IMG/VR virus record: IMGVR_UViG_3300037297_000135
Location: 66,484-130,483 of that record
DNA length: 64,000 bases
DNA from: a virus
Strand: one strand, 5' to 3'
Part shown: positions 16,441 through 44,682 of the stretch, one piece after another
How positions within the stretch are numbered: position 1 is the stretch's first letter
Layout of the letters: the number at the start of each line of letters is the position of its first letter
Translations under genes and position numbers: made by a program
The notes under the pieces: generated by a model
The model's database searches: none
What the model saw: only the letters and a program-made list of their open reading frames with translations
What the model was told of the DNA's origin: nothing

Positions 16441-16447
16441 GGTTTTT

Positions 16448-17018: not shown

Positions 17019-17114
17019 AAAAATGGATGACCATACAGATGCTACTTTAAAATTAATATGTTGTATTTTAGCAATCATATTTGGTGCAATATTACATAAA
17101 TGTACTTGAATTAT

Positions 17115-17188
17115 GTGGGTATAGCTTAATTGGACAAAGCAATAGATTTCTAATCTATTGAATGGGGGTTCGAATCCCTTTACCCATA
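17115..17188 (+). tRNA. tRNA-Arg(TCT)
   Basis: Full cloverleaf: GTGGGTA/TACCCAT, ATAGA-TTTCTAA-TCTAT, GGTTCGAATCC; no encoded CCA. Confidence 0.92.
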
Positions 17189-17192
17189 TTGA

Positions 17193-17266
17193 GCGAGTGT
17201 ATTCGAATTGGCATAGAAAACGGATTTAAAATCCGTGTTTTGAGGGTTCAAATCCCTCCACTCGTA
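17193..17266 (+). tRNA. tRNA-Leu(TAA), short variable arm
   Basis: GCGAGTG/CACTCGT, ACGGA-TTTAAAA-TCCGT, GAGGG-TTCAAAT-CCCTC. Confidence 0.85.
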
Positions 17267-17312
17267 TTAATTAAATTGAAAGGAATTATATTTTTTAGAG
17301 GATTAATTAGTT

Positions 17313-18062
17313 ATGAAAACAAATATTTTATACAATGAAGATTGTTTAATTGGTATGCAAAAAATAGAAAACAAATCAATCGATTGTATTTTTTGTGATT
17401 TGCCTTTTGGTATAACAAAAAACAAATGGGATAATATAATTGATTTTGATTTGCTTTGGAATCAATACAAAAGAATAATAAAAGATAGGGGCATTATATT
17501 ATTGTTTGCTTCTACACCTTTTAACTACATGTTATATAATTCAAATCCAAAAATGTTTAAATATGAAATCATAATTGAATATTCTCAACCAACAGGGTTT
17601 TTAAATGCAAATAAAAGGCCTTTAGTTTCACATGGTTATATTATGGTGTTTTACAAAAAACTTCCTATATATAATCCAATTAAAACAACAGGTCACAAAA
17701 AAAAATCAGTTCCAAATAGAATTGTAAACAGTGAAAATTATAATTATTGCAAATCAAATTCATACTGTAGTACTGAAAGATATCCAACAACTATTCAAAG
17801 ATATGCAAAACCAACATATCCAAAACATCCAACTGAAAAACCATTTGAGTTATGTGAAGATATAATTAAAACATATACAAACAAAAATGATATTGTTTTA
17901 GACAATTGTTTTGGTTCTGGTACAATTCCTTTAGCTTGTTTAAAAAATGGACGAAAATATATAGGTTTTGAAATTAAAAAAAAATATTATGATATAGCGT
18001 ATGATAGATTGCTTGAATTTAAAAGGATTTATATAGATATGGTGAATAAAACAAATGAATAA
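17313..18062 (+). CDS. N4/N6 DNA methyltransferase (beta class)
   Basis: Catalytic DLPF before SAM-binding FGSG; HPTEKP. Confidence 0.9.
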   Translation: MKTNILYNEDCLIGMQKIENKSIDCIFCDLPFGITKNKWDNIIDFDLLWNQYKRIIKDRGIILLFASTPFNYMLYNSNPKMFKYEIIIEYSQPTGFLNANKRPLVSHGYIMVFYKKLPIYNPIKTTGHKKKSVPNRIVNSENYNYCKSNSYCSTERYPTTIQRYAKPTYPKHPTEKPFELCEDIIKTYTNKNDIVLDNCFGSGTIPLACLKNGRKYIGFEIKKKYYDIAYDRLLEFKRIYIDMVNKTNE

Positions 18063-18265
18063 ATAAAATAACCTAACATCTTTAAAGATATTAGGCTATT
18101 TTACATAATAAATTGGCTTTTTAAACAATTTGTTTTTCATCTTTCCATTTTTATTATATATTAAATTATTTTATTTGTAAATGTTATTAAAGAAATTTAT
18201 TAAAAATTTTAATAACAGATTTTTATTTTATTTTTATTAAAATCTATTTTAATAGGGGATTAATT

Positions 18266-21200: not shown

Positions 21201-21472
21201 AATATTTTGGATATGTGCATACAAAATTAAAAGCCCATAAAGATTTGGTTATGGTTTTAGATATAAAAATTAAAAATTCTGTTAGAGTTCATGTTTGTTA
21301 CGTAAATTCTGGTGTTCATAAAACTTATACAATCTATAAAAATAAATTTTATAAACACCAGAACTATGACAACATATATTTTAATCCAAGATTTAAAATT
21401 TTTGACTTAATATACATTAAGTCAATTGAAACAAATAAATATGGTACTTTTTTAAACAGCTTCATGTTTTGA
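18266..21472 (+). CDS. dnaE: DNA polymerase III alpha subunit
   Basis: PHP HLHDEHS/NHG/DTH, RGSVGGSL, DIDIDF, HPAG, KFDILGL, FGYNH. Confidence 0.95.
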   Translation: MKTYTVFHLHDEHSNCNGYYDSITPFKEYLKLAKAQNMNAIALSNHGNIFEWVQKKQACDKLNIKYIHGIETYMDIIDMGKQSFHIGLYAKNYDGVMELNRLASKSTLKDGHFYKTPRIYFSELKQTSKNIIITTACLQSALWQLRKFENFTNEILEFLSSISDRSFLEIQYHNHIEQIEYNKLLLSYSKKYKIPLIAGTDTHSANSYYAECRKILQKSNNSYYGNEDSFDLTWKTYDELIECFKQQNSIPEIEFLKAIENTNVLANMVEPFELNYEFKYPGLYKNPKEKFLAAVDRNYKTKLNKGIIKENQEYIDRQKEELEAIEKQGMESFLYFMHELVEYCKKNNIIYGRCRGSVGGSLIAYILDIIDLDPIKFKTIFSRFCNADRISLADIDIDFAPEDRGKIYKYIINRFTTRNTAYISQFGKLKDRGTLDVLGRGLDMPLDEIKIIKDEYETLLFDYKKIIQESINLEEHKIENDIDNHEKFVVIINDIIIIAKLNILYDNYIKLKEKYKDVFYYFDGLKNTIISKGNHPAGIIGSPIDLIQHIGVWYKDGDENFPVSVCSMKPIESLNFCKFDILGLKMMGIIKDTYKDIGIKYHKSHEMNWEDKNIFDEIIQSKVGCFQFEGEYAFEQLKKFKPRNIFDITLVTAAIRPSGASYRDKLLNREFNRNPSKEIDELLVDNYGYIVYQEDTIKFLQQFCGFSGSEADTIRRAIGKKLLDVIKDNTEKITKGYQSTLKKDFETAKKEITEFLKMLINASRYQFGYNHALGYTLNTCTGIYLRHYHPVSFVKSYLNRADKNEDYVDGFNLAQLKGIKIESICFKYSYGKYIYDENTKTMYKGLKSVKYINNISDEILNDLYNQKYQNISDVFERFLNHFNKKQIGILIDLNYFKNFGNPNYLTECFKIFQKYFGKKQFKKDALLEIEKTWFEKIPHKKTDKLYKGFDSKDLINYIIKNALTKKSYDYFDLLKKEFEYFGYVHTKLKAHKDLVMVLDIKIKNSVRVHVCYVNSGVHKTYTIYKNKFYKHQNYDNIYFNPRFKIFDLIYIKSIETNKYGTFLNSFMF

Positions 21473-22318
21473 ATTTAATTTTTCTAAAATACTCTTTGAA
21501 TTGGTTGAAACATACAACTTAGTAGTTTCAATACTACTATGCCCTAAAACATCTTGTAATTCAAACACATTAAGTATATCACTGTTGTCACTTGCAAATT
21601 TACGCCTTGTTGAATGAACACACACTTCAAAAGGCTTTAAAGCTTTATTCAAAGTTGATTTATTCATGGGTTTGTTTTTACTAAATCGCCCAAAAAAAAC
21701 ATAGTTGTTTGGACTTAACTTTTGTTCCTTTATCCAATTTTGAAGTTTTTCAAAAATATAATCCTTAAAATATAAAATCCTTACATTTTCACCTTTACCA
21801 ATTAATAAACCTGTTTTAACAACATCTTTAACTTTTAAATTTAAAAGCTCTTTTTTCCTCATTCCAGTATAAACTAATGTTTCAACCATTAATTTATTTT
21901 TTTCTGAAATATTTGAATTTAATATTTTTTCAAATATTTTTTTAGGCATAGGCATTTTTTTTGATTTTGGTATGTTGATATATGGTGTTTTAATTATATT
22001 TTTTGACAAATATCTTTCTTTTGTCAAAAAATTCATAAAATCTTTTAATACAATGAATTTATATTTTATTGTTGTATTTTTGTTTCTTAAAACATTCCTG
22101 CAATGCAATATATATTCATTGTTACAAAATTCCTTTCCTTGTGTGATTAACAATTCTATATATTCTATAAAACTGTTAATCACACTTGTATATGTTTTTA
22201 TAGACTCAATTGAAGCACCAAAAACTTCTTTTGTATTTATATATTTTGTCAAATATTTCTGTTTTTTTGAAACTAATTTTTCCATTATGATTTCAATATC
22301 TGTTTTTTCTTTTTCCAT
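21452..22318 (-). CDS. tyrosine recombinase (Xer/integrase family)
   Basis: YTGMRKKE (R), GKG (K), HSTRR (HxxR), LGHSSIETTKLY (H, Y). Confidence 0.9.
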   Translation of the reverse strand: MEKEKTDIEIIMEKLVSKKQKYLTKYINTKEVFGASIESIKTYTSVINSFIEYIELLITQGKEFCNNEYILHCRNVLRNKNTTIKYKFIVLKDFMNFLTKERYLSKNIIKTPYINIPKSKKMPMPKKIFEKILNSNISEKNKLMVETLVYTGMRKKELLNLKVKDVVKTGLLIGKGENVRILYFKDYIFEKLQNWIKEQKLSPNNYVFFGRFSKNKPMNKSTLNKALKPFEVCVHSTRRKFASDNSDILNVFELQDVLGHSSIETTKLYVSTNSKSILEKLNSKHEAV

Positions 22319-22901: not shown

Positions 22902-23387
22902 TTACTTAACCACCTCTTTTTCTATTGCTTCATTAAGCATTTTTTTGTATTTTTCAAATTCTTTTGATTTATACCTATTATGAAACAAATAATCTTTATT
23001 GATTATTAAAATGGATGTAAACATCCATTTTACAATACCACCAGGTAACATCACTCCAAAATATTTGCATAACAAATAAAATTCATAATTTGTTATTGTA
23101 TAGTTTGTATATTTGTTTATAAGTATATCAAAATTTATACTTGTAGACACTTTTTCATATTCTTTTTTTGTTTGTTCAAAAAAATCGATTTTTTCAAATT
23201 TTACATTTTGTTTTTGAAAAATCAAAATATTTTTAATTTTTTTAGGTCTTTCTTTTTTAAAAAGATATATTTTGTTTTGTCTGTTTTTTAAGACAATATG
23301 TTTTTCATATACCTTAAAAACTTTGCAAAATATTCTTTTATCTTTTTTTATCAAATTTACAAACTCACCTTCAACTAACATCTTCAT
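22902..23387 (-). CDS. hypothetical protein
   Basis: 161-aa ORF overlapping the upstream gene. Confidence 0.5.
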   Translation of the reverse strand: MKMLVEGEFVNLIKKDKRIFCKVFKVYEKHIVLKNRQNKIYLFKKERPKKIKNILIFQKQNVKFEKIDFFEQTKKEYEKVSTSINFDILINKYTNYTITNYEFYLLCKYFGVMLPGGIVKWMFTSILIINKDYLFHNRYKSKEFEKYKKMLNEAIEKEVVK

Positions 23388-24243
23388 CTTTATCTTCCCA
23401 ATCTCTTACTTCATAATTAAATATTCCACGTATATTTAATTTTTTACTATATCCAATATTATAATTATACGCTTTGTGAAAGCCTTCACCATATTGGCGT
23501 TGGTTTGAAAAATATCCTATATCATATAACAATTTGGGATTGTTTTTTAATCTTTTAATGAATTTTTCATGTTCATATCCACGAATCCTCATTAATTTTA
23601 ACAATGCATAAAATGTCGATTTGTTATGACTGAATTTTTTATAATCAACTTCAAGAAAATCCATAATTCTATCTGCATTTTGAATTGATTTTTCATAATT
23701 AGGTATATTCAAAACACCTTTTTTTGATGCATCCAGTATGACATGTGACATTGGTCTATTTGCCAACAGCACAATTATTACAGCTAATGGTATATCTTTG
23801 TATTTGTTTTGGAAACCTTGTGCTATTTCATAATTCTTTTTCCCTTCTTTTAAATATGATTCAAAAAAGTCTTTCAATTTCCAACTTCCATTACAGTCAT
23901 TAATTCTTCTCATATCATTTGCATTAATATTTGGGTTTAATTGAAATACAATTGGTAATTGTGGATATTTATCAGACCCTTTATGTTTTTTGTTATATAT
24001 CTCTAGTGCTTTTTTTCTATTTCCACCATCATAAATCATTATCTTACCCTCTTCGATTTTACATATACACACAGTTTCGATGTACCCTTCTTCGAAACTG
24101 TGTACAAGTTCATTTATTTTATGTGGATTTTCACTTCTATTATATTTATGATTTTCAAAAGCATCAAAATTAAATGATTTATATGTCACAACCTTACTTT
24201 TTTCCACATCTACAATTTTTTTCAATTCTTGATATTCAGTCAT
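23371..24243 (-). CDS. ParB/Srx-like N-terminal domain protein
   Basis: NR...HKINEL..SF and IYDGGNRKKAL motifs. Confidence 0.5.
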   Translation of the reverse strand: MTEYQELKKIVDVEKSKVVTYKSFNFDAFENHKYNRSENPHKINELVHSFEEGYIETVCICKIEEGKIMIYDGGNRKKALEIYNKKHKGSDKYPQLPIVFQLNPNINANDMRRINDCNGSWKLKDFFESYLKEGKKNYEIAQGFQNKYKDIPLAVIIVLLANRPMSHVILDASKKGVLNIPNYEKSIQNADRIMDFLEVDYKKFSHNKSTFYALLKLMRIRGYEHEKFIKRLKNNPKLLYDIGYFSNQRQYGEGFHKAYNYNIGYSKKLNIRGIFNYEVRDWEDKDEDVS

Positions 24244-31731: not shown

Positions 31732-31849
31732 ATTACATTTCCCCTTTTTATTAATATAAAGTCTTATAAAGACTTTATCAACTATACAAAAAAAACTTTG
31801 TATAGTTGTAAAATTTTCATAAGTTTTAAAAACCAGATAAATATTAAAA

Positions 31850-32323
31850 TCAAATACCTGATAAATCCAAATCAGGTAAAAATGTTACTTTTTCGTGTAA
31901 TTTTGATAAATCCAATTTTATATTTGTATCACAAAAGAATTTTGTTAAAAAATCATACAATTCATCACTCAATTCATTTTCAATTTTTATTTCACATTGT
32001 TTTCCTACATCACAATCAAATTTTAAAATTTTTATTTTTTTATCCTTTATATTTATACTTACATCTTTATTATCTGTAGATAATTTTATCCATTCGTTTT
32101 TGTTATTTTTGAAATAATTGTATATCTCAAAAAGCATATTATAAGACATAAAATTTCTACTCAATTCTTTATAAATAACCCATAAGCTATTTATAAATTT
32201 TTTCAAATCTTCAATATCTTTTTCATTATTTTTTTTGTCTAATATTACTGCAATTGATTGACAACAATATCCTTCTAATTCACTACTCTTTAAAGGTGTA
32301 TAAGTTTCTTCTTTTTTTGACAT
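31850..32323 (-). CDS. hypothetical protein, paralogue of 33684..34184
   Basis: Shared MSKKEETY.PL.SSE start and DLSG end. Confidence 0.65.
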   Translation of the reverse strand: MSKKEETYTPLKSSELEGYCCQSIAVILDKKNNEKDIEDLKKFINSLWVIYKELSRNFMSYNMLFEIYNYFKNNKNEWIKLSTDNKDVSINIKDKKIKILKFDCDVGKQCEIKIENELSDELYDFLTKFFCDTNIKLDLSKLHEKVTFLPDLDLSGI

Positions 32324-32333
32324 ATTATATCAG

Positions 32334-32412
32334 TCTCCTTTTTTTTGTTTTAAGCTATATAAGCTTTAAAAAGCATACACAGTTAAACTGTATACGCTCT
32401 AAAAGATTATAT
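32334..32412 (-). repeat. intergenic double-hairpin element, identical to 34194..34272
   Basis: 79-bp exact duplicate including the RBS and the upstream stop codon. Confidence 0.95.
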
Positions 32413-32883
32413 ATTGTTTTTATAAATTTTCGAATAATCATCAATTTCAATTTCATTTGAATCACATAACGATGTAATTTTACCTTTCACACTTAAACCT
32501 GGAAAACTATCAAAATCAACAATGCATTTCCCATCATTGTCAATGTTGTCATTGTCAACGGTTTTCATATGTTCAAGTTCATTTTTTACATCAATCCAGT
32601 ATTTACCAATATAAAATTGTTCGAAAATTTCAGAATTAAATTCATGAAAAAATACACCAATTTCCTTACTTCCTTTGTATGCTGCTAAAATTATTTCTTT
32701 ATTATCTACAAAACAACGCCAACAATATACATTTTTATTTTCCATATCTACATACCAGTCAACTTTTTTATCATTCAAATTCCATATTCCATTTAATAAT
32801 TCATAAAAATCATTAAGCAAATTGATGTATTTTCTATTTTCTTTACTTGTTTTTGCTTCTTTTAAATTTTTAAAAATACTCAT
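32407..32883 (-). CDS. hypothetical protein
   Basis: GGAGG RBS. Confidence 0.6.
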   Translation of the reverse strand: MSIFKNLKEAKTSKENRKYINLLNDFYELLNGIWNLNDKKVDWYVDMENKNVYCWRCFVDNKEIILAAYKGSKEIGVFFHEFNSEIFEQFYIGKYWIDVKNELEHMKTVDNDNIDNDGKCIVDFDSFPGLSVKGKITSLCDSNEIEIDDYSKIYKNNI

Positions 32884-32895
32884 TTCCGACCTCCA

Positions 32896-33309
32896 TTAAG
32901 CTGATTTTTGATTTATAAAACTTTTTAATAATTTTAACAAACTTGGTTTTTTAGCTGCTGAAACTGTATAACGATTTTTAGCATCAACAAAAACCCAAAA
33001 CAATTTGGGGCAATAAAAAATATTGATTGCGATTGATAAAATTGTCTGGTTTAGTTCGTCAAACCTGTAAATTAAACTTCCTGAATTTTTTAATACTACT
33101 AAATGTAGTGTTTTTAATCGAAAATCATTAGGTTTTAATGATTTTGAATTTTTATTTTTATACAGGTTTAAAAACTCAATCCCGTATGTTTCACTAATTT
33201 GTGTAATTGTTGTTTGTTTATAGAAAAGTGATGAATGAATTTTTGTTTTTGGAGTAATCAATGGTTTTCTCCAATTTGTTTGTATATTTTTTTTTGTTAA
33301 ATTTATCAT
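32896..33309 (-). CDS. hypothetical protein
   Basis: AAGGAG RBS after a hairpin element. Confidence 0.55.
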   Translation of the reverse strand: MINLTKKNIQTNWRKPLITPKTKIHSSLFYKQTTITQISETYGIEFLNLYKNKNSKSLKPNDFRLKTLHLVVLKNSGSLIYRFDELNQTILSIAINIFYCPKLFWVFVDAKNRYTVSAAKKPSLLKLLKSFINQKSA

Positions 33310-33345
33310 TTTTGTTCCAGTCTCCTTTTAATTTGTTTTAGTTTT

Positions 33346-33402
33346 TTAATACACATTTAAAGGAATAATTTAAACTACAATTATTCCTTTTCTTTATATT
33401 AA
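33346..33402 (-). repeat. intergenic bipartite hairpin element
   Basis: Inner AAAGGAATAATT/AATTATTCCTTT, outer TTAATATA/TGTATTAA. Confidence 0.75.
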
Positions 33403-33407
33403 CTACT

Positions 33408-33662
33408 TTACCTTTTATTTATGTCATTATGCTGATTGCAAAATTCATTATACATTACATTGAACTGTGTTTTATCATTTTTTCGTAAAAATGAACCTAA
33501 TGTTCTTTGTTCATGATTTTTAATTATTACATTTTCTGATTTTTTGCTAGACATATAAATATATTTGTCTATAGCTTCCTGTTCTGACAATGTATTTGAT
33601 AGATTTTCATTCAGAAAATCTTCAAAATGTTGTTTTGTGTTAGTTCTTTTTCCAATTGCCAT
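33408..33662 (-). CDS. hypothetical protein
   Basis: 84-aa ORF with AAGGA RBS. Confidence 0.55.
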   Translation of the reverse strand: MAIGKRTNTKQHFEDFLNENLSNTLSEQEAIDKYIYMSSKKSENVIIKNHEQRTLGSFLRKNDKTQFNVMYNEFCNQHNDINKR

Positions 33663-33683
33663 ATTTTTTCACATCCTTTTAAT

Positions 33684-34184
33684 TTAAAATCCAGATAAAT
33701 CAATATTTTTTTCAACTTTAAATTCTTCAGTACCTAATTTTTCTAAATCAAGATTTACATTGTAATTGAAAAATTTACATACAAACTCATACAATGTATC
33801 ACTCATTTTATCTTTTATATTTATATCTACTGTTTTTTCTAATTCTAAATTTAAGATAGATATTTTTCTATCTTTTAAATTAAAAGATACTGTCCTATTT
33901 GAAGTAGGTATTTTTATCCAATTGTTTTCATATTTTTCTTTATTGTCAAAGAAAAATTTAATTTCATGTAACATATTATACGACATTATTTCTCTATGCA
34001 ATTCAGTTCTCAAAACCCAAACAGATTTTATAAAATTTTCTAGAATTTCCATTTCTTTTTTAATTTCTGCTTTTTCTTTTTCATTATTTGGATTTTTTTC
34101 AAGTATTGTTGCAATTGTACTCAAGCAATATTCTTCAGCTTCACTTGATTGCAATGGTTCATAAGTTTCTTCTTTTTTTGACAT
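33684..34184 (-). CDS. hypothetical protein, paralogue of 31850..32323
   Basis: Start set to MSKKEETY by RBS spacing. Confidence 0.65.
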   Translation of the reverse strand: MSKKEETYEPLQSSEAEEYCLSTIATILEKNPNNEKEKAEIKKEMEILENFIKSVWVLRTELHREIMSYNMLHEIKFFFDNKEKYENNWIKIPTSNRTVSFNLKDRKISILNLELEKTVDINIKDKMSDTLYEFVCKFFNYNVNLDLEKLGTEEFKVEKNIDLSGF

Positions 34185-34193
34185 GGTTTTCAT

Positions 34194-34272
34194 TCTCCTT
34201 TTTTTTGTTTTAAGCTATATAAGCTTTAAAAAGCATACACAGTTAAACTGTATACGCTCTAAAAGATTATAT
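34194..34272 (-). repeat. intergenic double-hairpin element, identical to 32334..32412
   Basis: Exact 79-bp duplicate at offset 1860. Confidence 0.95.
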
Positions 34273-34689
34273 CATGTCAAACAAACTTTTTGCTTTTCTG
34301 GTTGATGTTTTTGCCCAATTTTTATAAGCATCTAACCATTTTCCCTCATTTTCTTTGTTTCCCAATATTTCGCAAATTTGACATAATCTTTTAAAATTAT
34401 ATCTTTGTACATCTTCAGAGAAAACTATTTCATCATAATTTTTCCCTAACTGCCATTTTACCATACCATTTTCGGTTTTTTCTTTTTCTGAAATTTCAAT
34501 CACAAATTGTTTTGAATTTGAACGATTTTTGAATTTGATTTCAATATTGACAATGTGTTTTTCATCTTCATGCAATCTTTTGTATAACAAAGGTTTTATA
34601 TCGTGATATATAAAACCCATATCGACTTTGTATCCATTGATATCAATATTTTGATATTCCTTGATTTTTTTTACTTGAATTTTTGGCAT
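34267..34689 (-). CDS. hypothetical protein
   Basis: Start moved to MPKIQ by the AAGGAG RBS. Confidence 0.6.
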   Translation of the reverse strand: MPKIQVKKIKEYQNIDINGYKVDMGFIYHDIKPLLYKRLHEDEKHIVNIEIKFKNRSNSKQFVIEISEKEKTENGMVKWQLGKNYDEIVFSEDVQRYNFKRLCQICEILGNKENEGKWLDAYKNWAKTSTRKAKSLFDMI

Positions 34690-34717
34690 TTTTTTCAGTC
34701 TCCTTTTGATTTGTTTT

Positions 34718-34776
34718 TTTAATACACACAAAAAGGAACAATTTTAACACAATCATTCCTTTTAATTTGTATTAAA
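34718..34776 (-). repeat. intergenic bipartite hairpin element
   Basis: Inner AAAAGGAATGATT/AATTGTTCCTTTT, outer TTTAATACA/TGTATTAAA. Confidence 0.75.
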
Positions 34777-34798
34777 TTCTTTTTATCTGCATTCAATC

Positions 34799-35122
34799 TT
34801 ATTTTTCATTCATATTATATGAAAAATTTATTTTCTTTTTAAAATTATTAGAATCAATTCTACAAAAATAATGTTTATATGTTTTATTATTCAGCAAAAC
34901 AAAAATATTTACATATGTATACATTTCTTTAAATGAAAATTCAATAAATATTTTTTCATTTGTAAAGCTATTTAATGTTTGAAAATATTTGTCATTTTCT
35001 TTATATGCTTTTTGAAATTGAACAAAATTTAATAAAAATATTTCATTAAGATTTAAATTTGTTGCACTTATTTGTAAATTTTCACTATTGTTGATTGTAT
35101 TGTTATTTATTATTAATTCCAT
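34799..35122 (-). CDS. hypothetical protein
   Basis: AAGGAG RBS. Confidence 0.55.
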   Translation of the reverse strand: MELIINNNTINNSENLQISATNLNLNEIFLLNFVQFQKAYKENDKYFQTLNSFTNEKIFIEFSFKEMYTYVNIFVLLNNKTYKHYFCRIDSNNFKKKINFSYNMNEK

Positions 35123-35148
35123 TTTATATCATTCTCCTTATATTTTTT

Positions 35149-35200
35149 TTAGTTCATAAGTCAAAGAGCGTATAAAATACACTCTTTCAATATTAACTAA
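35149..35200 (-). repeat. divergent intergenic hairpin element
   Basis: Minus strand AAAGAGTGTAT/ATACGCTCTTT (one G-T pair), same position as the other copies. Confidence 0.55.
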
Positions 35201-35219
35201 AAAATCAACAAAAAATCAA

Positions 35220-35774
35220 TTAACTAATTTCTCTCATTTGAGCAGCTTCTTTCTTTAGTTGATTGTATGTCATATTCTCAAAATCATATTGATTTTCATT
35301 GTAATATGTATTTAGGTAGTTTATACATGATTGCCTATTGTTTCTAATCAACTTTAGTTTTTTATCGTAAAATTTACATTCATAACCCAAATTTGACAAT
35401 GTTTGTATCAAATTATCAGGATTGAAAATTTCAAAAGCAACATTACATATTGACTTTGATTTCAAATCATGAACAATACTTGATATTATATCACTCAACC
35501 ATGTTTTACAATTTAGTTTGTTGTTTGTTAAAACATTTTCAATATTTTCATGTATGATTATATCGTTTTTGCATTTTTCTAATGTTTTAACAATTTTTTT
35601 GATATCTGTTTTTATTTCATCAAAAATATTGTAATGTATGATTGTTGACATCAAATTTAAAGCATTTAAGCTATAGTTTGTTTCCTGGTTTTCTTTATCT
35701 TTTTCTAAAATCATGGAAATGATTTTAATTAGATTTTCTTCATTTAGATTTTCAATGTTATATAGTTTTTTCAT
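35220..35774 (-). CDS. hypothetical protein
   Basis: Start moved to MKKLY by RBS. Confidence 0.55.
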   Translation of the reverse strand: MKKLYNIENLNEENLIKIISMILEKDKENQETNYSLNALNLMSTIIHYNIFDEIKTDIKKIVKTLEKCKNDIIIHENIENVLTNNKLNCKTWLSDIISSIVHDLKSKSICNVAFEIFNPDNLIQTLSNLGYECKFYDKKLKLIRNNRQSCINYLNTYYNENQYDFENMTYNQLKKEAAQMREIS

Positions 35775-35800
35775 ATTTTTGTATTCTCCTTTTTTTTTAA

Positions 35801-35853
35801 TAAAACACATTAAAACATACCAACAATCTTGTTGATATGCTCTCTTTGCTTTA
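35801..35853 (-). repeat. intergenic bipartite hairpin element
   Basis: AGAGCATATCAACA/TGTTGGTATGTTTT, outer TAAAGCA/TGTTTTA. Confidence 0.75.
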
Positions 35854-36627
35854 TTTGTCAAAATATTGATTTATATACACTACATTTAAATCTTTTTTTA
35901 CTGGACAATCTGGCTCACCTTCAAAACTTGAACAATTGTATAATTCAGGTTTCAAACTTCCCAATGTTGTATCCTTCCATATGCTAGTTGTTTCAAGGGT
36001 TTTGTATATTGGTCTTGAAAAACTATCAAGGCCACAAAAATATAAATGTCTTGTATTTGACTCCATATTTAATATATATGTTTTCCAAATATTATCATTC
36101 GCGTGAAAATGCAAAGCGACTTTTTGCTCTTCGAAAATCGGATGTTCGAATATTTTTAAATGTTCCATTGTATTGATTTTTATTGTTTGATATTTCATTG
36201 TTTTGGTATCAATTTCAAAAAGCTTTTTTGAAATTTCAATTGTTTTAACTTTCTTGTTTTGTATTTCATCGAAACCAATAAAGCGTTTATTGTCTTTATA
36301 AAAATAACACGCTGGAATAAATATTTTTCTTGATATATCAAAAACATATTTATCATATATAAAATCTTCATATAATGTATGAGTGATTTTAATTGCAGTT
36401 ATTTTCCCCTGATATTTTTTTATAATATCAGACCATAAACAATCAATATTTGAATTGTCATAGTTTTTATTTTTTGCAATTTCAATTATTTCCTCTTGTA
36501 TCTTTTTTGAAATATTTTTGAAAAATATCATAGGCCTTTCAAATTTTACGCATTTTTCAATGTCTTTTGACCTTACAAAAGTTGTTCTTTCAATTTTTTC
36601 GTGTGTTTTTACAACTGTATATTTCAT
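35851..36627 (-). CDS. hypothetical phage protein
   Basis: C-terminal GLDSFSRPIY...WKD...FEGEPD block. Confidence 0.6.
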   Translation of the reverse strand: MKYTVVKTHEKIERTTFVRSKDIEKCVKFERPMIFFKNISKKIQEEIIEIAKNKNYDNSNIDCLWSDIIKKYQGKITAIKITHTLYEDFIYDKYVFDISRKIFIPACYFYKDNKRFIGFDEIQNKKVKTIEISKKLFEIDTKTMKYQTIKINTMEHLKIFEHPIFEEQKVALHFHANDNIWKTYILNMESNTRHLYFCGLDSFSRPIYKTLETTSIWKDTTLGSLKPELYNCSSFEGEPDCPVKKDLNVVYINQYFDK

Positions 36628-36654
36628 GTTATATCATTCTCCTTTTTGTTTATT

Positions 36655-36711
36655 TAAGCTATATAAAGCTTTATGAAGCACACACAAATTTGTGTATGCT
36701 CTAAAAGGTTA
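36655..36711 (-). repeat. intergenic double-hairpin element (same subtype as the 79-bp pair)
   Basis: TAACCTTTTAGAGCATACACAAATTTGTGTGTGCT...AAGCTTTATATAGCTT. Confidence 0.85.
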
Positions 36712-36719
36712 CATAGTTT

Positions 36720-37277
36720 TTAAACTGTTAATAATTTTCTTTCATCATTCGCTTTAAAAGCAGAATGACCATATTTATTTTTTATATCCTTATAACTTCC
36801 TTTGTTGTTCCATGTTTTTATTTTTTTGCCGCCTGGTGACCTCATAAATTTTTTTCTTTTAAGATTGTAAGTAAAACCTAAATCAACTAATTTCAAATCA
36901 TTTTTTCTTTCTTTATACCATTCACGAGATGGCATAGTCAACCAAAAATAGCATCCAACAAGTTCAATTTTTATTTCTGGAAAACTTTTTGACATATTGT
37001 TTAATGCAACAATTATAAATCCATAATCTTTTATTAGTTCATCATCAAAAAATCTATATTTTTCAGTTTCTTTATGATTTGTTTTGTCATAATTTTTACC
37101 TATTTCATTTTTTAAAAACTCGAATTCGTTATTGATTGCCTTCATAATTTCAGTATGTTTTAATTTTTCTTTTTCATCTTGAACAAAATCTGGATGATAT
37201 TTTTTTACAAGTACCCTTAATTGTTGACGCACCTCATCGGCTGTATTTAAATTTTCACTAAAATATTTTAATTCCAT
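36720..37277 (-). CDS. J-domain (DnaJ-like) protein
   Basis: LVKKYHPD...MKAINNEFEFL helical J-domain with HPD motif. Confidence 0.7.
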   Translation of the reverse strand: MELKYFSENLNTADEVRQQLRVLVKKYHPDFVQDEKEKLKHTEIMKAINNEFEFLKNEIGKNYDKTNHKETEKYRFFDDELIKDYGFIIVALNNMSKSFPEIKIELVGCYFWLTMPSREWYKERKNDLKLVDLGFTYNLKRKKFMRSPGGKKIKTWNNKGSYKDIKNKYGHSAFKANDERKLLTV

Positions 37278-37302
37278 AGTTTGCATTCTCCTTTTATTTT
37301 TT

Positions 37303-37363
37303 TTTAAAACACACTAAAACAAACAATCAAAAAAAATGATTGTTTGCTCTATGCAGCTTTAAA
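37303..37363 (-). repeat. intergenic bulged hairpin element
   Basis: TTTAAAG-C-TGCAT-AGAGCAAACAATCA/TGATTGTTTGTTTT-A-GTGTG-TTTTAAA. Confidence 0.9.
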
Positions 37364-37366
37364 CAT

Positions 37367-37867
37367 TTAATTTTCACAAATTTTATCTTTTAAAAATGTA
37401 TAATATTCAGTTAAACAAATACCGAAAATATAACAATCTCGATTTATTTTTATTATTCCGTCTTTATGAATTTTGAAATGTTCTGTTAGTTCTTTTTTTG
37501 TCATCCCTGTATACTCGATTGCTTCTTTAATCGTTGAAGGCAATTGACCGCGGTTGTAGTCTATAATTGCAAATTTGTTTTGAAGTCTATCAAAATCAGC
37601 TTTTTTGATATAATATTTTGAATATGTACCAAACTCTTGGTTACAATTGTATGCTTCATATCCATTCATCATTTTTTCAAAACTTTGTTTTTCTTCATTG
37701 TTTTTATTGTATTCGGTTATATCAGTTGGTTTTACCCACATATTATCAAATCTAACCTTTAAAGGTAAAACCAAAACAGACATATCAAAATTGTATGCTT
37801 TTTTGGCTATTGGTTTAGTTACACGGATATATTCAACATTGTTATATATTTGTTCTTCTTTTTTCAT
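37367..37867 (-). CDS. hypothetical phage protein
   Basis: 166-aa ORF; YNC..E.G.Y motif. Confidence 0.6.
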   Translation of the reverse strand: MKKEEQIYNNVEYIRVTKPIAKKAYNFDMSVLVLPLKVRFDNMWVKPTDITEYNKNNEEKQSFEKMMNGYEAYNCNQEFGTYSKYYIKKADFDRLQNKFAIIDYNRGQLPSTIKEAIEYTGMTKKELTEHFKIHKDGIIKINRDCYIFGICLTEYYTFLKDKICEN

Positions 37868-37896
37868 AGTTTGTATTCCCCTTTGTTTTTGTTTTT

Positions 37897-37958
37897 TTTA
37901 AAACACATTTAAACAAACAATCAAAAAAAAATGATTGTTTGTTTTATGCAGCTTTAAA
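37897..37958 (-). repeat. intergenic bulged hairpin element
   Basis: TTTAAAGCTGCATAAAACAAACAATCA/TGATTGTTTGTTTAAATGTGTTTTAAA. Confidence 0.9.
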
Positions 37959-37961
37959 AGG

Positions 37962-38474
37962 TTAGAGCACAATTGCTGTATGCTTCAATATCATGTAACT
38001 AAATTCGTTAAACTCTTCAATTGTAACCAAAAAACTTAATTTCCAGTTTAACAAAAATCTAACGGTATCTAGTTTTTTGTTGACTTTGAAATACAGTTTA
38101 TCACCTAGTTTTATATTTTGAGCTTGCTTGACATTTGAAAAAATATATTTGAATGTTTTTATATCTTCATCACTTGTATAAATATAATGATTTGTGTTTT
38201 CTATGTCTTCAATCAATTTTTCATTTCCAGATATATCAAAAGAAAAATAACAATTGTTGCCTTCTTTTGTAAAAATACAAATTTTATATTTGTTATCTTT
38301 AATACCTAAAGATAACAAAAATATTGCATTGTTTTTGTATTTTTCTTTTATGTATTCATCAAGAGCAAAAAATAAATTTTCCTCTTTTGAGGTCAAAATA
38401 TTTTCTATAGGTAAAATTATTTCATTCACGTATTTTTTTTGATGGTCAATTAGATTTAAATTTTCAATTTTCAT
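37962..38474 (-). CDS. hypothetical protein
   Basis: AAGGAG RBS. Confidence 0.55.
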   Translation of the reverse strand: MKIENLNLIDHQKKYVNEIILPIENILTSKEENLFFALDEYIKEKYKNNAIFLLSLGIKDNKYKICIFTKEGNNCYFSFDISGNEKLIEDIENTNHYIYTSDEDIKTFKYIFSNVKQAQNIKLGDKLYFKVNKKLDTVRFLLNWKLSFLVTIEEFNEFSYMILKHTAIVL

Positions 38475-38506
38475 TGTTTGTTTTCTCCTTTTAATTTATT
38501 GTTTTT

Positions 38507-38560
38507 TTTAAAACATACTAAAACATACAATTAAAAAATTGTATGCTCTATACAGTCTTA
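38507..38560 (-). repeat. intergenic bulged hairpin element
   Basis: TAAGA-C-TGTAT-AGAGCATACAATT/AATTGTATGTTTT-A-GTATG-TTTTA. Confidence 0.9.
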
Positions 38561-39154
38561 AACTTTGATTATTTCTACTAAATAAGTATCTAGTAAACTT
38601 ACTTCTACTTTTATTTTATTTTTTGGATGTTTTTGCTCTACACTTTTTTCAAAATCAAGAAAATAATGTATATCGTCAATTGTTACTCTATAACGAATAT
38701 TGGAGTTAAAAGTAAATGATTTTAAAATTGATGAATTGTAATCATTTTTAACCAGATAAAAATTTCTAATGTCTTTGATATATTTGTTTTTCAGTTCTTT
38801 AATTTTTGCGTGTGTAGCTAAAACAAAAAACATTTCTTTTAAATCTTTTGAATTCATCCTTGATATTTCTTCATGTTTTAAAGCTGTTTTATTTATCAAT
38901 GTTTTTGTATAAAAAATTATTTCTTTTTCTGCATATTGATTGTACATGTCTTTATACAAATCTATATAGTAATTTAAGTCATGTACTTCATTTTTTAAGC
39001 AGTAATACAAAGGTATTTCTTCATCAAAATTATTTTCAATTGTAGTCAATACAATTTCAATACCTTCACTATATAGCTTTTCAGCTTCTTTTTTATCAAT
39101 ATTTCTGTATGTATGATTGTTTAGTTCTATTTCTTGTTTTATTGTTTTATTCAT
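38558..39154 (-). CDS. hypothetical protein
   Basis: Start moved to MNKTIK by RBS. Confidence 0.55.
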   Translation of the reverse strand: MNKTIKQEIELNNHTYRNIDKKEAEKLYSEGIEIVLTTIENNFDEEIPLYYCLKNEVHDLNYYIDLYKDMYNQYAEKEIIFYTKTLINKTALKHEEISRMNSKDLKEMFFVLATHAKIKELKNKYIKDIRNFYLVKNDYNSSILKSFTFNSNIRYRVTIDDIHYFLDFEKSVEQKHPKNKIKVEVSLLDTYLVEIIKV

Positions 39155-39181
39155 TGTTTGTTTTCTCCTTTTTTTTGTTTT

Positions 39182-39238
39182 TTTAAAACATACTAAAGCA
39201 TACAATTAAAAAAATTATATGCTCTATACAGCTTTAAA
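39182..39238 (-). repeat. intergenic bulged hairpin element
   Basis: TTTAAAG-C-TGTAT-AGAGCATATAATT/AATTGTATGCTTT-A-GTATG-TTTTAAA. Confidence 0.9.
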
Positions 39239-39242
39239 AGGT

Positions 39243-39665
39243 TTACTCTTTTAAGTCTTTAATGTTTTTAGTTAAAAATTCATAGTCTTTTAATGCATTT
39301 TTCCCAATTTCTTTAAAAAACTCATTCAGATTTTTAAAAAGATTGTCAACTATTTCGATTGTTTCTGAATTTTCTTTTATTCGAGTATCTTCTTCAACTC
39401 TATATTTGTAAATATTTTGACCAAATTTTTGTATATCTGCTAACAATTTGCTAAAATCGTTTCTAATTTCGTCAATCTGTTCGACTTGTTCATTATGATA
39501 TTTTCTATATAAATCAAAGTCTAACAATCGCAATTCTAATTCACTGCATGATTTTTGTGTGTCAATGCTAAATACTTCATTGAAATACATGCATTTTCCG
39601 CCTACTTTGCATTCACAGTCATAATTATATTTACATTCTTTTAAATTAGGTTTATTTTTATCCAT
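39243..39665 (-). CDS. hypothetical protein with N-terminal Cys cluster
   Basis: CKYNYDCECKVGGKC; start moved to MDKNK. Confidence 0.55.
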   Translation of the reverse strand: MDKNKPNLKECKYNYDCECKVGGKCMYFNEVFSIDTQKSCSELELRLLDFDLYRKYHNEQVEQIDEIRNDFSKLLADIQKFGQNIYKYRVEEDTRIKENSETIEIVDNLFKNLNEFFKEIGKNALKDYEFLTKNIKDLKE

Positions 39666-39692
39666 TTTTTTGCATTCTCCTTTTTTGTTTTT

Positions 39693-39753
39693 TTTAAAAC
39701 ACATTTAAGCAGATAATTACATTTTCTAATTATCTGCTTTATGTAGCTTTAAA
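39693..39753 (-). repeat. intergenic bulged hairpin element
   Basis: TTTAAAGCTACATAAAGCAGATAATTA/TAATTATCTGCTTAAATGTGTTTTAAA. Confidence 0.9.
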
Positions 39754-40405
39754 ATATTTTATATTCAGCTTTTTTACATGCAGCTTTTAAGTTTTTCTCA
39801 TTATGTAAAAAATTATATGTTTGATTTTCAGCAAAACTAAAATAATTATCATTCCCGATAATTATATGATCAATTAAATCAATATCAATACTAAAAAAAG
39901 TATTATCTAAATTTTTTGTCAAATTTATATCAGCGTTTGAAGCTTCTAATTTACCACCTGGATGATTATGGGACAAAATAACTTTTTTTGCATTATAAAA
40001 TAATGCATTTTTTGCCATTTCTCTTTTATATGTTTTACATTCGTCTATTGTTCCGTTGCTTATGATTTTAGTTCTTATAATATCATTAGCATTGTTTAAA
40101 AACATACATACTATATATTCTTTATCATTTTTATGTTTAAAAAAGTTTTTCATGTATTCCCCAGCTATTGAAGTGCAATATATATTATATTTGTTTTCTG
40201 CTTTTAAATTTGTATATGTGTTAAATAATTTAATTAAATCATTTATTTTTTCTTTTTGGTTTTCTGTAATATTTAAAATTTTTGAATATTCAAATAAATT
40301 ATTGATTGAATTATCTTTTAAAAAATTTTCAATCTTTTTTTCATTTATTCCAGTAAAACCAGAAAATAATTTTATTATATTTTTTGTATCTTTTTTAATT
40401 TGCAT
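39749..40405 (-). CDS. radC: RadC-like JAB/MPN domain protein
   Basis: E...LSHNHPGG...SNAD...T...LIDHIIIG. Confidence 0.85.
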   Translation of the reverse strand: MQIKKDTKNIIKLFSGFTGINEKKIENFLKDNSINNLFEYSKILNITENQKEKINDLIKLFNTYTNLKAENKYNIYCTSIAGEYMKNFFKHKNDKEYIVCMFLNNANDIIRTKIISNGTIDECKTYKREMAKNALFYNAKKVILSHNHPGGKLEASNADINLTKNLDNTFFSIDIDLIDHIIIGNDNYFSFAENQTYNFLHNEKNLKAACKKAEYKIF

Positions 40406-40438
40406 AGTTTTTGCATTCTCCTTTTAATTCATTGTTTT

Positions 40439-40495
40439 TTTAAAACATACTAAAACATACAATTTTAAAAATTGTACGCTCTATATAGCTTTAAA
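40439..40495 (-). repeat. intergenic bulged hairpin element
   Basis: TTTAAAG-C-TATAT-AGAGCGTACAATTTT/AAAATTGTATGTTTT-A-GTATG-TTTTAAA. Confidence 0.9.
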
Positions 40496-40856: not shown

Positions 40857-41039
40857 TTTTATCATTCTCCTTATATTTTGTATTGTTAAAACCTGCAAAA
40901 CAACAAAAACAAAGTTTTTGAAACAATGTTTTGCAAGCTTTATACAATACAAAAAAGATTTTATACAATTCAAAAATACAGAACTCCATAAAACCTTTTT
41001 GCATTGTTAAAGGAGAAAAGGAGAAATATTTCGAATTTT

Positions 41040-41985
41040 GCGACGTGTAGAAAATAGCGTAGTCTACAACTGCCTATTTTCCGTGGCTTTAGTTTTTATG
41101 TTGCTTGTATGTAGCTACATAACAACAAACTTCCAACATATACAATATACTATATCTCTAGTATCTTTTTTTCGTTACTGTTTGTTAATTGTTGTTGTAT
41201 CAAAGTGTTTACGCCTATTAAATCAAGTATACTCAATTTAATAAAATAACGGTTTTCACGTTACATTATACATGTCAATATCCCTATATGTAACAAAATT
41301 CAGCTACTACACGACTTTTCAAGCGACTACTCTTTTCATACCAGTTTCAAGACTTGTTTCGTTACTGTTATCAAGTCTTAAACTCTCTTTGTATTTCGTA
41401 ACACAGTATTTTACTAGATTAATGTCATATCCTAAAAAATGAAACTTCCATAACTGTAAAATGATTGAGTTTTCGTGCTTTGCTGTCTTTTATTAATTTT
41501 TCAATGTACAAAAATAGCATTGTTAAACGGTTTTATTGTTTACACGTTGTTTGTGTTATTCTCTTTCCCCAATAATCTAAGTCGTTAATTCGAGCTGATA
41601 CACGATTTTAACTAGCATGCAAGTTTATATAAGCTTGCAATTTTTCGTTGAATCGAGTCAACGTGGTAATTTCAATCGATTGACATAGTGTATACACTGT
41701 ATAGCCTTAGATTTAAGCATAACGGTCAATTAAAATTGACTCGATTAATGTCATATCAATTTTTATGTATCTAACAAAATCGAGTTCATTAGTTACACCA
41801 CAAACAACTTTATCCAAAATGTACATTTTTGACATAAGTTTTCTAATATCCCTCCATTCCTGTCAAAAGTACGGATTTAAAGTCAATGCTATTAATTTTT
41901 CAAAGAACAAGTCAATTTACTTAAAAGCTATCAAAGATGTCATGTCGACTTGTTGTCCGTCGACACCGTAATCATATAACGCCTA
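41040..41985. ncRNA. candidate large structured ncRNA
   Basis: No credible ORF, visibly higher GC than flanks, several 7-11-bp helices and internal 13-15-bp direct repeats. Confidence 0.45.
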
Positions 41986-42551
41986 AAAAATTTTGAAAAT
42001 GTTGATTTTAAATTGTTTTTGATTGTTTTTTTGATGTTTGATTTAAAATGCTTAATCATTTTCCTTTTTTCGCTTTTTTTTGTTTATTTTTGAGTTTTTT
42101 GAAAGAATTTTTGTTTTTTGGTTTTTTGTGTTTTAGATTTGATAACCTTTTTCAGATTTTAAAATTTTTTGTTTAAGTTAAATTGTATGTTTTAATTTTT
42201 TTGTTTGTTTGAATGCAGATTGTGTAAAGGTTTCAAAAGTTTGAATTTTTGCAGAAAAAAAATAAAAAAAGTTGACTGAATAAATATAGGTTGAATGGAT
42301 TAAAACATTTAAAACAGTGTGATTAAATAGGTTTTTGAAGATGAAAAAATTTTTTTGAATTTTGTCCAGATTTTGAAAAACTGGAAGTTTGAAAAGCCGA
42401 TTTTTTTAATGATTTTGTAATGTTTGAAATTGGATTGTAAAACAGTAATGTTTTTATAGGTTTTTTGTGTTTGAATTGTAATATTTGAATAGTTGTTTTT
42501 GCTGTATAATGGTTATATCAACAAAATAAAATTTAAAGGAGATTAAAGATT

Positions 42552-42710
42552 ATGTATAAAACATTCGCTGATTTGGCAACAGCAGCATTAAACAAAGGAT
42601 ATAGAATTTACAGAAAAGATAATGAATTGTATTACGTAAAGGATTTTGTAAATGATAGATTCGCTGAAAATGTAACAAAAAGCGGGATTATAAGATTGAT
42701 AAATAAGTAA
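42552..42710 (+). CDS. 52-aa hypothetical protein (not in ORF track)
   Basis: MYKTFADLATAALNKGY...; upstream TGTATAAT, AAAGGAG RBS, downstream terminator. Confidence 0.65.
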   Translation: MYKTFADLATAALNKGYRIYRKDNELYYVKDFVNDRFAENVTKSGIIRLINK

Positions 42711-42722
42711 TGGAGATATGTT

Positions 42723-42749
42723 AAGGCCTTGATGTAAGGCCTTTTTTTT
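42723..42749 (+). terminator. Rho-independent terminator
   Basis: AAGGCCTT-GATGT-AAGGCCTT followed by a T run. Confidence 0.7.
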
Positions 42750-43833
42750 ATGCCATTTTTTAAGGATATATGATGTATATAACATTGCTGGTATACAGCA
42801 TCATATATATCAATATATCAATTAATATTTAATGTTGTATTGATTGTATGTACCATATCAATTAACTATATCTGTTTAAATTTTAATCGATTGTATATGC
42901 CTTTTTGAGCTTTAAAACCATATATGTAAATTGTAACATATTGCATATTAATGCATGTATATGTATATATGCATATATGATATACGTGTATACAGCTTAT
43001 ATAGTGTATTTGATGTATGTTTGTATACAGATTAGATTTGTATGTTTAAGCAGCTGTAAAAAGATACCCTATATAGGTATATAAAATACTGACTGTATAC
43101 AGATATGCTGATTGTATTCAAACGCCTTGAAATAGCTGTTTTGAGACAAATAGACATTGTTTTGTATTTTGTAGTTCAGATAGTACACATTGTATTGTGT
43201 TAAGCTAATACAGTACAATGTATCGTATTTGAATGTGTGTTGTGTAGTGTTTCAGTAGGCTTCATACGTTGGATGATGGACAATGAATGATTTTGAATGG
43301 TTTTAGGTTTTTGAAGTTGATACATGATAGAAATGATACGATGTTAAGTGATGGACAATAGATAGGATATAGGATTGAACAGGTTTCAGACGTTGTACAG
43401 ACATGGATAGAACATTTGTTTGATATGTATGTTTTGATAATAACAATTTGATATTAACACAATGATAATAACAGAATGATAATATCAAAGTGATAATATG
43501 ACCAGGTCATAAGATGAGGTCATATGATTAGGTAGTATATGAAGTTGGATGATGAACGATGAAGTAATATGATGAAATATTGCGAAAGAGTGTAACGAAT
43601 TGCATTGTATAAATTTTGCGTATCTTTTTAGGTAAAATTGCTTCCTATATAAATCAAAAAATACAGCAAATACAAATGTTTATGTTTTATCCCAATTTTG
43701 ATGATTCTATTTAATTACTCATTAAATTGACTGAAACAATTGAAATGCTGATGAATACAGAGTTATATAATAATAGCCCCTACTTTACGTTTGTAAAAAT
43801 ATGGAGATACCCATTATCCCACCTACCTCCTTG

Positions 43834-44100
43834 AATCTCTGTTCAAGGATATTTTAAAATGTAGTTTAGATATATATATTTAAATTCAAAAATCCATCGT
43901 CTTTGACTCGGGCAAAATTTAAAATGTAGTTTAGATATATTTCAAATTCAAAAAAACTACAATCTCCGTTCAAGCATATTTTAAATCACAGTTTAGATAA
44001 ACAAAATCCAAAATTCAAAATTCAAAAAAAATCCCTGAATCTACGTTCAAGGATTAAATCAAATATAGTTTAGATTTATATTCAAAAACAAAATTCAAAT
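43834..44100. repeat. four imperfect ~62-77-bp direct repeats
   Basis: AGTTTAGAT at 43863, 43928, 43990, 44067; AATCTNNGTTCAAG at 43834, 43961, 44038. Confidence 0.75.
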
Positions 44101-44109
44101 TCAAAAAAG

Positions 44110-44682
44110 TTATTTAAAGTTATTCCAATCTACTTTATTTTCATCTAAATACACAAAAAACATTTTCCCTAAATCACCTTGATTTTCATAAATACCTCTA
44201 TTATCTTTTCCAATTTTACAAAATGTATAAATCCCATAATTCACATGCAAACCTGTTCCATCTTGAAAGTCTATCAATGTATAATTGAAATTTTTATTTT
44301 TCAAATATTTTTCAAAACTCAACAAAACTTCTTCAGTTAAAAGTTCCTTACTTGTTACAACTCTTGCATATGTTCCTATTCTTTCTGTATTCAATCCATT
44401 CATTAAAGGTCTTTCTTGCAACTGATTTTGCAACAAATATTTATTCATATTTTCCATCTCCTTATTTTCTATTTTTTTAGTTTCAATTATCTGTATTTTA
44501 GTTATTGTTGGTTTTGGTGTTTTAACTGAGGTTTGAGTATTTGATTCATATTTATTTATTGTATTTACAGCTTGTGTATTTACATAAGTTCCATCTGACA
44601 ACAAATCAATTATTGCATAAATTAATAAAAAACAAATCATTAAAAACTTCATACCATCGATTATTTTAAATAAATTATTCAA
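44110..44682 (-). CDS. membrane-anchored hypothetical protein
   Basis: N-terminal TM helix, Thr/Pro linker. Confidence 0.55.
   Translation of the reverse strand: MNNLFKIIDGMKFLMICFLLIYAIIDLLSDGTYVNTQAVNTINKYESNTQTSVKTPKPTITKIQIIETKKIENKEMENMNKYLLQNQLQERPLMNGLNTERIGTYARVVTSKELLTEEVLLSFEKYLKNKNFNYTLIDFQDGTGLHVNYGIYTFCKIGKDNRGIYENQGDLGKMFFVYLDENKVDWNNFK

Follow-up and report, generated by a model that had tools for sequence, protein, structure and literature searches.

In a 64,000-nucleotide (nt) stretch of viral DNA (the window, positions 66484-130483 and thus the second half of the 130,483-bp IMG/VR record IMGVR_UViG_3300037297_000135, which is rated complete), 14 of the 16 junctions in an array of small genes on the minus strand, read from 40865 to 31729, carry a long bulged hairpin that folds best on the message strand. 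We read these hairpins as cis-acting, message-strand punctuation of one long early transcript, of the size expected for RNase III and possibly acting as weak terminators too, and we give this reading a probability of about 0.5. It draws on the structure and strand specificity of the hairpins, on covariation among their copies, on their confinement to the array and on the near absence of promoters from the junctions. The array also holds the trace of a recombination event between two junctions.

Every junction between the 17 genes was extracted from stop codon to start codon and folded with a few bases of upstream context (n=16). The hairpins follow the stop codons at 40493, 39751, 39245, 38560, 37964, 37369, 36722, 35853, 35222, 34801, 34269, 33410, 32409, and 31852. 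The first thirteen had been reported in a preliminary description of positions 32324-40495 and are all found there, and the one at 31852 lies just outside that range, but the thirteen are not consecutive as had been stated, since short junctions without a hairpin break the run at 33686 and 32898 (Table 1). Each hairpin spans 56-74 nt and forms a single bulged helix of 22-29 pairs, built from an outer A/U stem, a middle stem of 4-5 pairs, and an upper stem of 11-15 pairs. It starts at or directly past the stop codon and ends 15-30 nt 5' of a strong AAGGAG ribosome site, and an A-tract and AAGGAG lie 3' of every copy. In three of the six copies of the commonest type (type A, below) the stop codon falls within the outer stem, a feature already recorded for several copies.

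Two comparisons indicate that folding is a property of the transcript. First, the folding energies of the 14 hairpins have z values of -3.8 to -7.9 against dinucleotide shuffles. Second, in all 14 the sense strand folds more stably than the antisense strand, often by at least 10 kcal/mol (for example, -19.5 versus -6.6 and -22.9 versus -7.3 kcal/mol), because 43 of the 363 predicted pairs are G.U; the antisense values of -6.6 and -7.3 kcal/mol are no better than those of shuffled sequences, and the same holds for several copies. The earlier observation that mismatches resolve as G-U on the coding strand only is therefore upheld, and a signal that resides in the sense strand, between cistrons without promoters of their own, points to a role at the level of RNA, as had been proposed.

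Table 1. Hairpins, junctions, genes, and candidate promoter of the array (window coordinates; bits and E values from the type-A covariance model).
Feature	Coordinates	Strand	Remarks
Type-A hairpin, 23 pairs	40439..40495	-	stop codon in outer stem; 77.5 bits
Type-A hairpin, 26 pairs	39692..39754	-	own inner-stem sequence; stop codon in outer stem; 71 bits
Type-A hairpin, 23 pairs	39181..39239	-	84.8 bits
Type-A hairpin, 22 pairs	38507..38562	-	stop codon in outer stem; 80.1 bits
Type-A hairpin, 26 pairs	37896..37959	-	middle stem in C-G form; 83.3 bits
Type-A hairpin, 26 pairs	37303..37363	-	continuous helix with two single-base bulges; 82.8 bits
Type-B hairpin, 29 pairs	36652..36725	-	alternative fold: upper hairpin plus small AAGCT/AGCTT hairpin; 25.3 bits
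Type-A-like hairpin, 23 pairs	35799..35855	-	56.9 bits
Singleton hairpin, 24 pairs	35146..35203	-	from fold and shuffle comparison
Type-C hairpin, 22 pairs	34718..34776	-	outer stem TTTAATAC/GTATTAAA, compensated relative to type A; 38.3 bits, E 8e-4
Type-B hairpin, 24 pairs	34217..34272	-	inside 82-nt tract identical with junction 32409
Short junction, 21 nt, without hairpin	33663..33683	-	from junction extraction
Type-C hairpin, 23 pairs	33340..33407	-	27.7 bits
Short junction, 12 nt, without hairpin	32884..32895	-	from junction extraction
Type-B hairpin, 25 pairs	32356..32413	-	identical to copy at 34269
Fourteenth junction hairpin, 27 pairs	31763..31823	-	sole junction with a good host-type promoter as well
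Small-gene array, 17 genes of 84-258 amino acids	31729..40865	-	open reading frames read from 40865 down to 31729
RadC-like gene	39749-40405	-	array member
J-domain protein gene	36720-37277	-	array member
Paralogue pair	33684-34184 and 31850-32323	-	46% identical
Best candidate host-type promoter upstream of array	41265..41294	-	GTTACA-18-TATAAT, 10 of 12; inferred

The six type-A copies and the copy at 35853 (n=7; mean column identity 74%) were given to RNAalifold, whose consensus is one 23-pair helix with single-base bulges: an outer stem of TTTAAAGC with GTTTTAAA, a bulged base, the middle stem, a second bulge, the upper stem, and a variable loop. This agrees with the anatomy and the middle-stem covariation given in the preliminary description. 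Compensatory changes occur at five pairs, including a U-A/C-G swap (3:3 copies) in the middle stem, and eight further consensus pairs vary by wobble only. In the consensus helix 96.2% of cells are paired, against 90.4% expected from column shuffles, and the covariation score is 0.323 against 0.200; none of 500 shuffles reaches the observed value of either. Sliding the 3' partner by 1-3 columns lowers pairing to 37-60%. The copies are paralogues in one genome, so these compensatory changes represent few independent events.

What had been taken for one conserved element is shared by the six type-A copies and the one at 35853, but by sequence the full set of 14 divides into about four subfamilies: A (6+1 copies), B (three copies), C (two copies), and two singletons, with membership often common to neighboring junctions. 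The type-A covariance model reaches type C at E values of 8e-4 and 0.08 and type B only at 0.2-0.4. The outer stem of type C (TTTAATAC with GTATTAAA) differs from that of type A by an A-U to U-A change in which both partners have switched, so that the pairing is preserved. The flanks of the hairpins pair with a mean energy of -6.5 kcal/mol, against about -4.2 kcal/mol with other gene ends, and all 14 copies do better than the control mean. Type-B junctions (34190-34230, 32330-32370, and 36650-36675) also hold a small palindrome, AAGCT and AGCTT separated by 5-6 nt, which resembles the AAAGCT-N-TATAG block on the 5' side of type-A hairpins; relative to the upper stem, the block thus stands on one side in type B and on the other in type A. 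AGCT was considered as a special word and dropped, with 291 occurrences observed and 268 expected.

Promoters were sought with a host-type (-35/-10) consensus. The region shows no enrichment (127 found, 144 expected), and when the 150 nt ahead of each start codon were scanned specifically, 15 of the 16 junctions gave nothing convincing, with scores of 6.5-9.5 of 12-13 at implausible positions. Junction 31852 is the exception, with TTGATA-17-TATATT at 31781-31753 on the minus strand (score 10.5), and the earlier statement that no -35/-10 boxes are evident holds for the range it covered, which this junction lies just outside. The lack of promoters is meaningful because the same genome uses canonical ones elsewhere: dozens of TTGACA/TTTACA-17-TGnTATAAT sites occur outside the array, many of them adjoining gene starts. 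From the missing junction promoters we infer that the array is probably read as one transcript from upstream. Two start regions, 35120-35165 and 40866-40900, read TATAAGGAGAATGATA-N-AAATG, preceded at a distance of 16-17 nt by a hexamer, TTGACT or TTGCAG; the -10-like hexamer there overlaps the ribosome site. A transcript from it would be nearly leaderless, but the arrangement is probably due to chance.

If the hairpins are processing signals, the array would be transcribed from one or more promoters in the region free of open reading frames (ORFs) that lies upstream, and at each cistron end the message would fold into a bulged helix of about 25 pairs, which the RNase III of the host would cut between cistrons. 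A cut on the 3' side would leave the upstream message with a protective 3' hairpin and would give the downstream message a 5' end made up of an unstructured A-tract together with a very strong Shine-Dalgarno sequence. In some copies (type B and the one at junction 34801, which have a tail of five U) the hairpin may attenuate transcription as well. RNase III substrates take the form of a two-turn helix with bulges, and in coliphage T7 RNase III sites lie between the early genes. The uniform 22-29 pairs across unrelated subfamilies would be expected if the hairpins were selected by an enzyme that measures the length of double-stranded RNA. For the Bacillus phage SP82, early RNA is cited as a substrate of Bacillus RNase III (Panganiban and Whiteley, 1983, pmid 6409421, in PMC4838370), and the ribosome-binding site is cited as affecting mRNA half-life, with a purine-rich sequence resembling such a site downstream acting as a 5' stabilizer (Hue et al., 1995, pmid 7539420, in PMC7509114).

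The likeness to the T7 and SP82 sites lies in similar hairpins in the gaps between small early genes of what here is probably one long transcript, in a helix of about two turns with bulges or an internal loop on the message strand and, for SP82, in a purine-rich ribosome site 3' of the hairpin. The hairpins described here differ in having no sequence similarity to those sites and matching no Rfam family at gathering or E-value thresholds. They also differ in number and kind, with 14 in four subfamilies, several with a U-tail, against three to five in T7 and SP82, and their cleavage is a prediction. If they are processing sites, the array would be a clean natural example of a phage from low-G+C Gram-positive bacteria expressing many unrelated accessory genes from one promoter while giving each its own message ends, and it would supply 14 graded natural substrates for the study of Firmicute RNase III recognition. 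The general design is already known, so that the value of the array lies in the variant and in how readily it can be tested rather than in a new principle.

Several observations weigh against this reading. Taken copy by copy the outer stem is modest, since a fraction of 0.01-0.44 of other gene ends pair equally well or better, and with an A/U-rich outer stem in a genome of 23% G+C part of the pairing is expected by chance. The candidate promoter upstream, some 400 nt away from the first gene, is a weak match to the consensus (10 of 12). A domain search found no RNase III domain encoded in the phage genome. Four distant phages with comparable arrays (below) have a promoter for each gene, so that a promoter type we did not recognize is conceivable here. 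Most of the hairpins, moreover, meet loose criteria for terminators, and four were flagged by a terminator scan.

The last point bears on a second reading, in which the hairpins are leaky intrinsic terminators or attenuators, each halting a fraction of the RNA polymerases. Expression would then form a gradient along the array, or would be switched in time, should a phage factor suppress termination. A run of 3-5 U follows each hairpin, with a tail score of -2.4 to -5.1 on a TransTermHP-style scale; type B and junction 34801 reach -4.6 to -5.1, within the range of canonical-looking terminators in the same window (-4.65 to -5.9), and could well terminate transcription. A scan for terminator-like sites found 15 in the region against 2.0 expected, the four flagged array hairpins among them, and the stem-loops of the T4-type arrays discussed below are effective terminators (PMC2839356). 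As in Rho-independent terminators, a hairpin with a short U-run stands at the 3' end of a gene. The 22-29 bulged pairs, however, make stems 2-3 times longer than the stems of other hairpins in the window that look like terminators (about 8-13 pairs, followed by 7-8 T); the stems are A/U-rich, the tails other than those of type B and junction 34801 consist of 3-4 U interrupted by A or G, and the pairing does not stop at the U-run but goes on into the A-tract, an extension that termination does not require. Fourteen serial terminators without promoters between them would also silence the distal genes unless each were very weak. We accordingly favor processing and stabilization, and regard attenuation as the general function of the hairpins as a lesser possibility.

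A third reading takes the elements as true promoter-early stem-loop (PeSL) cassettes, in which a terminator hairpin is coupled to a promoter of a type that consensus scans miss and each gene is its own transcription unit. PeSL cassettes are the repeated junction modules by which T4-type phages shuffle ORFans (PMC2839356, PMC4122927). The array resembles them in having a repeated module that fills the space between one stop codon and the following start codon in a plastic region of ORFans, with the stem-loop first and the Shine-Dalgarno sequence and start codon last, and unbroken runs of such junctions occur in both. Junction 31852 moreover joins a hairpin to TTGATA-17-TATATT, and the arrays of the distant phages have one promoter per gene. 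One candidate for an overlooked promoter is the conserved word TRTGTTTTAAAA (T[AG]TGT[AT]TTAAAA), which occurs eight times in the array and once elsewhere in the 130 kb; it begins with TRTG, as extended -10 promoters do, and might be read as such or by a phage-directed polymerase. Yet the two best-conserved positions of a -10 element, A at -11 and T at -7, are missing from it whichever register is chosen, and type B and the singleton copies do not contain the word. It also forms the 3' side of the outer and middle stems, where its changes are matched by changes in the 5' partners, and for this last reason it was dropped as a stand-alone promoter. The phage uses canonical promoters elsewhere, and a domain search of its genome found no sigma-70 region 2 domain. 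The search for a T7-type polymerase domain gave no match in the genome, but its control also failed to register, so that this proves little. The sigma-70-type promoter that defines PeSLs is missing from 15 of the 16 junctions, and the hairpin is 2-3 times longer here. Because that promoter was looked for and not found, we do not count the array as a member of the PeSL family, and hidden promoters seem to us distinctly unlikely.

What the array does appear to share with PeSLs is the use of its repeats as recombination homology. Upstream of the two paralogues at 33684-34184 and 31850-32323, the junctions share an 82-nt tract with 100% identity that begins shortly ahead of the stop codon, takes in both loops, and reaches the ribosome site, and the first 24 nt of both genes match too; the remainder of the pair is about 60-65% identical, and the genes upstream are unrelated. 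Identity of the junctions between diverged and unrelated flanking genes indicates that the repeats recombine, and judged by its sequence the tract is one of conversion or crossover and not of conservation by function alone. The same 60-100-nt module recurs between unrelated genes and so would serve as a homology patch, through which ordinary recombination could convert, duplicate, delete, or swap cassettes. The paralogue pair is the one departure from the earlier statement that the cargo is unrelated; apart from the RadC-like and J-domain genes, the remaining array genes could be assigned to no family.

A comparison by analogy only is offered by the four distant phages, each of about 135 kb, which encode a J-domain homologue (31% identical) in a comparable array and have 7 of 174 ORFs in common with the genome described here. 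Their cassette maps differ by gain, loss, and permutation, and 99 of 119 alignment ends fall within the 27% of their DNA that is intergenic, which is the pattern of PeSL arrays in T4-type phages (PMC2839356, PMC4122927). Of the known systems, the RNase III-punctuated early operons of T7 and SP82 would come closest to the array described here in the way it works, and PeSL arrays in the way it evolves; given these precedents, the earlier claim of an undescribed system is not supported. It would mean that the T4-type junction-cassette design can exist without its promoter half, which bears on how early, probably anti-host, genes are gained and lost. Going further, a hairpin of about 25 pairs of double-stranded RNA might have two jobs, as punctuation that yields separately stabilized messages and as a linker for the exchange of ORFan cassettes, and might be recognized by a dedicated phage factor rather than by host RNase III alone. 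PeSLs would then have an RNA-punctuated counterpart, in a phage that resembles a phage-plasmid and is matched most closely, among cultured phages, by one of Clostridioides; we consider this combination doubtful.

Recombination had also been envisaged in a site-specific form, with the hairpins as integron-like sites: folded in single-stranded DNA, they would be substrates for cutting and joining by the tyrosine recombinase encoded at 21452-22318, and cassettes would move as circles. The cassettes are indeed promoter-less and in one orientation, each ends 3' in an imperfect hairpin that has extrahelical bases and varies at its top, and the recombinase is encoded on the same strand. Integron attC sites, however, fold the bottom (antisense) strand and have the core RYYYAAC/GTTRRRY. 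Here the antisense strand is, in several copies, no more stable than shuffles, and the 3' outer stem GTTTTAA does not match GTTRRRY, the outer stems being TTTAAAGC/GTTTTAAA. The only recombinase is a generic Xer, which scores best on XerA (109 bits) and reaches 34.4 bits against the 265-bit cut-off of the TIGR02249 integron-integrase model; its gene is 10 kb away from the array and has a ParB-like gene on the same strand (23371-24243) as its neighbor, a placement that fits dimer resolution or the plasmid-type maintenance of a phage-plasmid. Because the recombinase is generic and the antisense strand folds poorly, the integron analogy fails, and the 82-nt identical tract, which passes through the ribosome site, looks like homologous exchange and not like a fixed crossover point. 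We regard this mechanism as very improbable.

Insertion of miniature palindromic mobile elements between the genes (REP, Correia, or MITE-like) seems to us barely credible. Such elements would account for short sequences with inverted-repeat ends in multiple near-identical copies flanked by unrelated genes. They would not be expected to occur, as here, all in one 9-kb array and in one orientation relative to the genes, with every copy placed between stop codon and ribosome site and none elsewhere in the genome, and the strand-specific wobble pairing points to selection on the transcript.

A covariance-model search, which the preliminary description had suggested for the genome and for related phages, confined the element to the array within the 130-kb genome, with all good-scoring matches on the gene strand. 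Extended beyond the genome it found no copy in the four complete phages of the distant group, in 21 other loci, or in part of the Clostridioides difficile phage LIBA6276. An exact-pattern scan of viral contigs gave single chance matches only, a gapped pattern had 0 matches over metagenome contigs, and Megablast against cultured phages returned nothing. In other blocks of small genes in the same phage the junctions measure 17-46 nt and carry no hairpins.

The phage itself is of siphovirus type, as indicated by a 2082-aa tape-measure protein, a large terminase, and minor tail proteins, and so differs from the T4-like myoviruses in which PeSLs are known. Other genes in the window encode a DnaE-type polymerase, RecJ, a helicase, the Xer-like tyrosine recombinase, and the ParB-like protein. 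The nearest cultured match, by DnaE only, is to the C. difficile phages LIBA6276 and LIBA2945 (about 133 kb; DnaE 46.6% identical), and in the 80 kb of LIBA6276 that was compared the common genes are replication genes only; like the four distant phages, LIBA6276 serves as an analogy rather than as a relative. A search with the RadC protein returned no relatives. For the J-domain protein, searches of viral, genome, and metagenome collections gave matches at about 30% identity only, and its homologues on contigs include an identical protein on a 57,645-bp contig and a 58% homologue on a 1,510-bp contig.

Upstream of the array lie 3 kb without ORFs (window 40900-44110), possibly a replication origin, the array's transcript leader, or both. 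This region contains an iteron-like 14-bp repeat in 4.6 copies at 43435-43498 and 77-bp tandem units at 43941-44108, at least one of which has a terminator-like hairpin (44055-44030, minus strand); at about 42800-43700 its minus strand is C/A-rich and G-poor.

Some further features of comparable arrays were recorded in passing. The four distant phages have terminal repeats and are 88-98% identical to one another in shared blocks. Their junctions combine an A/T-rich word, AAAAATAATTAATAAA, with TTGACA-17-TATAAT for each gene (the array lies at 8000-20450 in one of them), and many stop codons are followed by a short CTCC/CCTC word that might base-pair with the Shine-Dalgarno sequence of the gene after it. 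On a metagenome contig of 33% G+C, about 25 small genes occupy positions 1-10000; many of the junctions there have a promoter-like word resembling TTTGAATAAC and no Shine-Dalgarno sequence, which suggests one promoter per gene in the style of Bacteroidota, and a few strong terminators are present.

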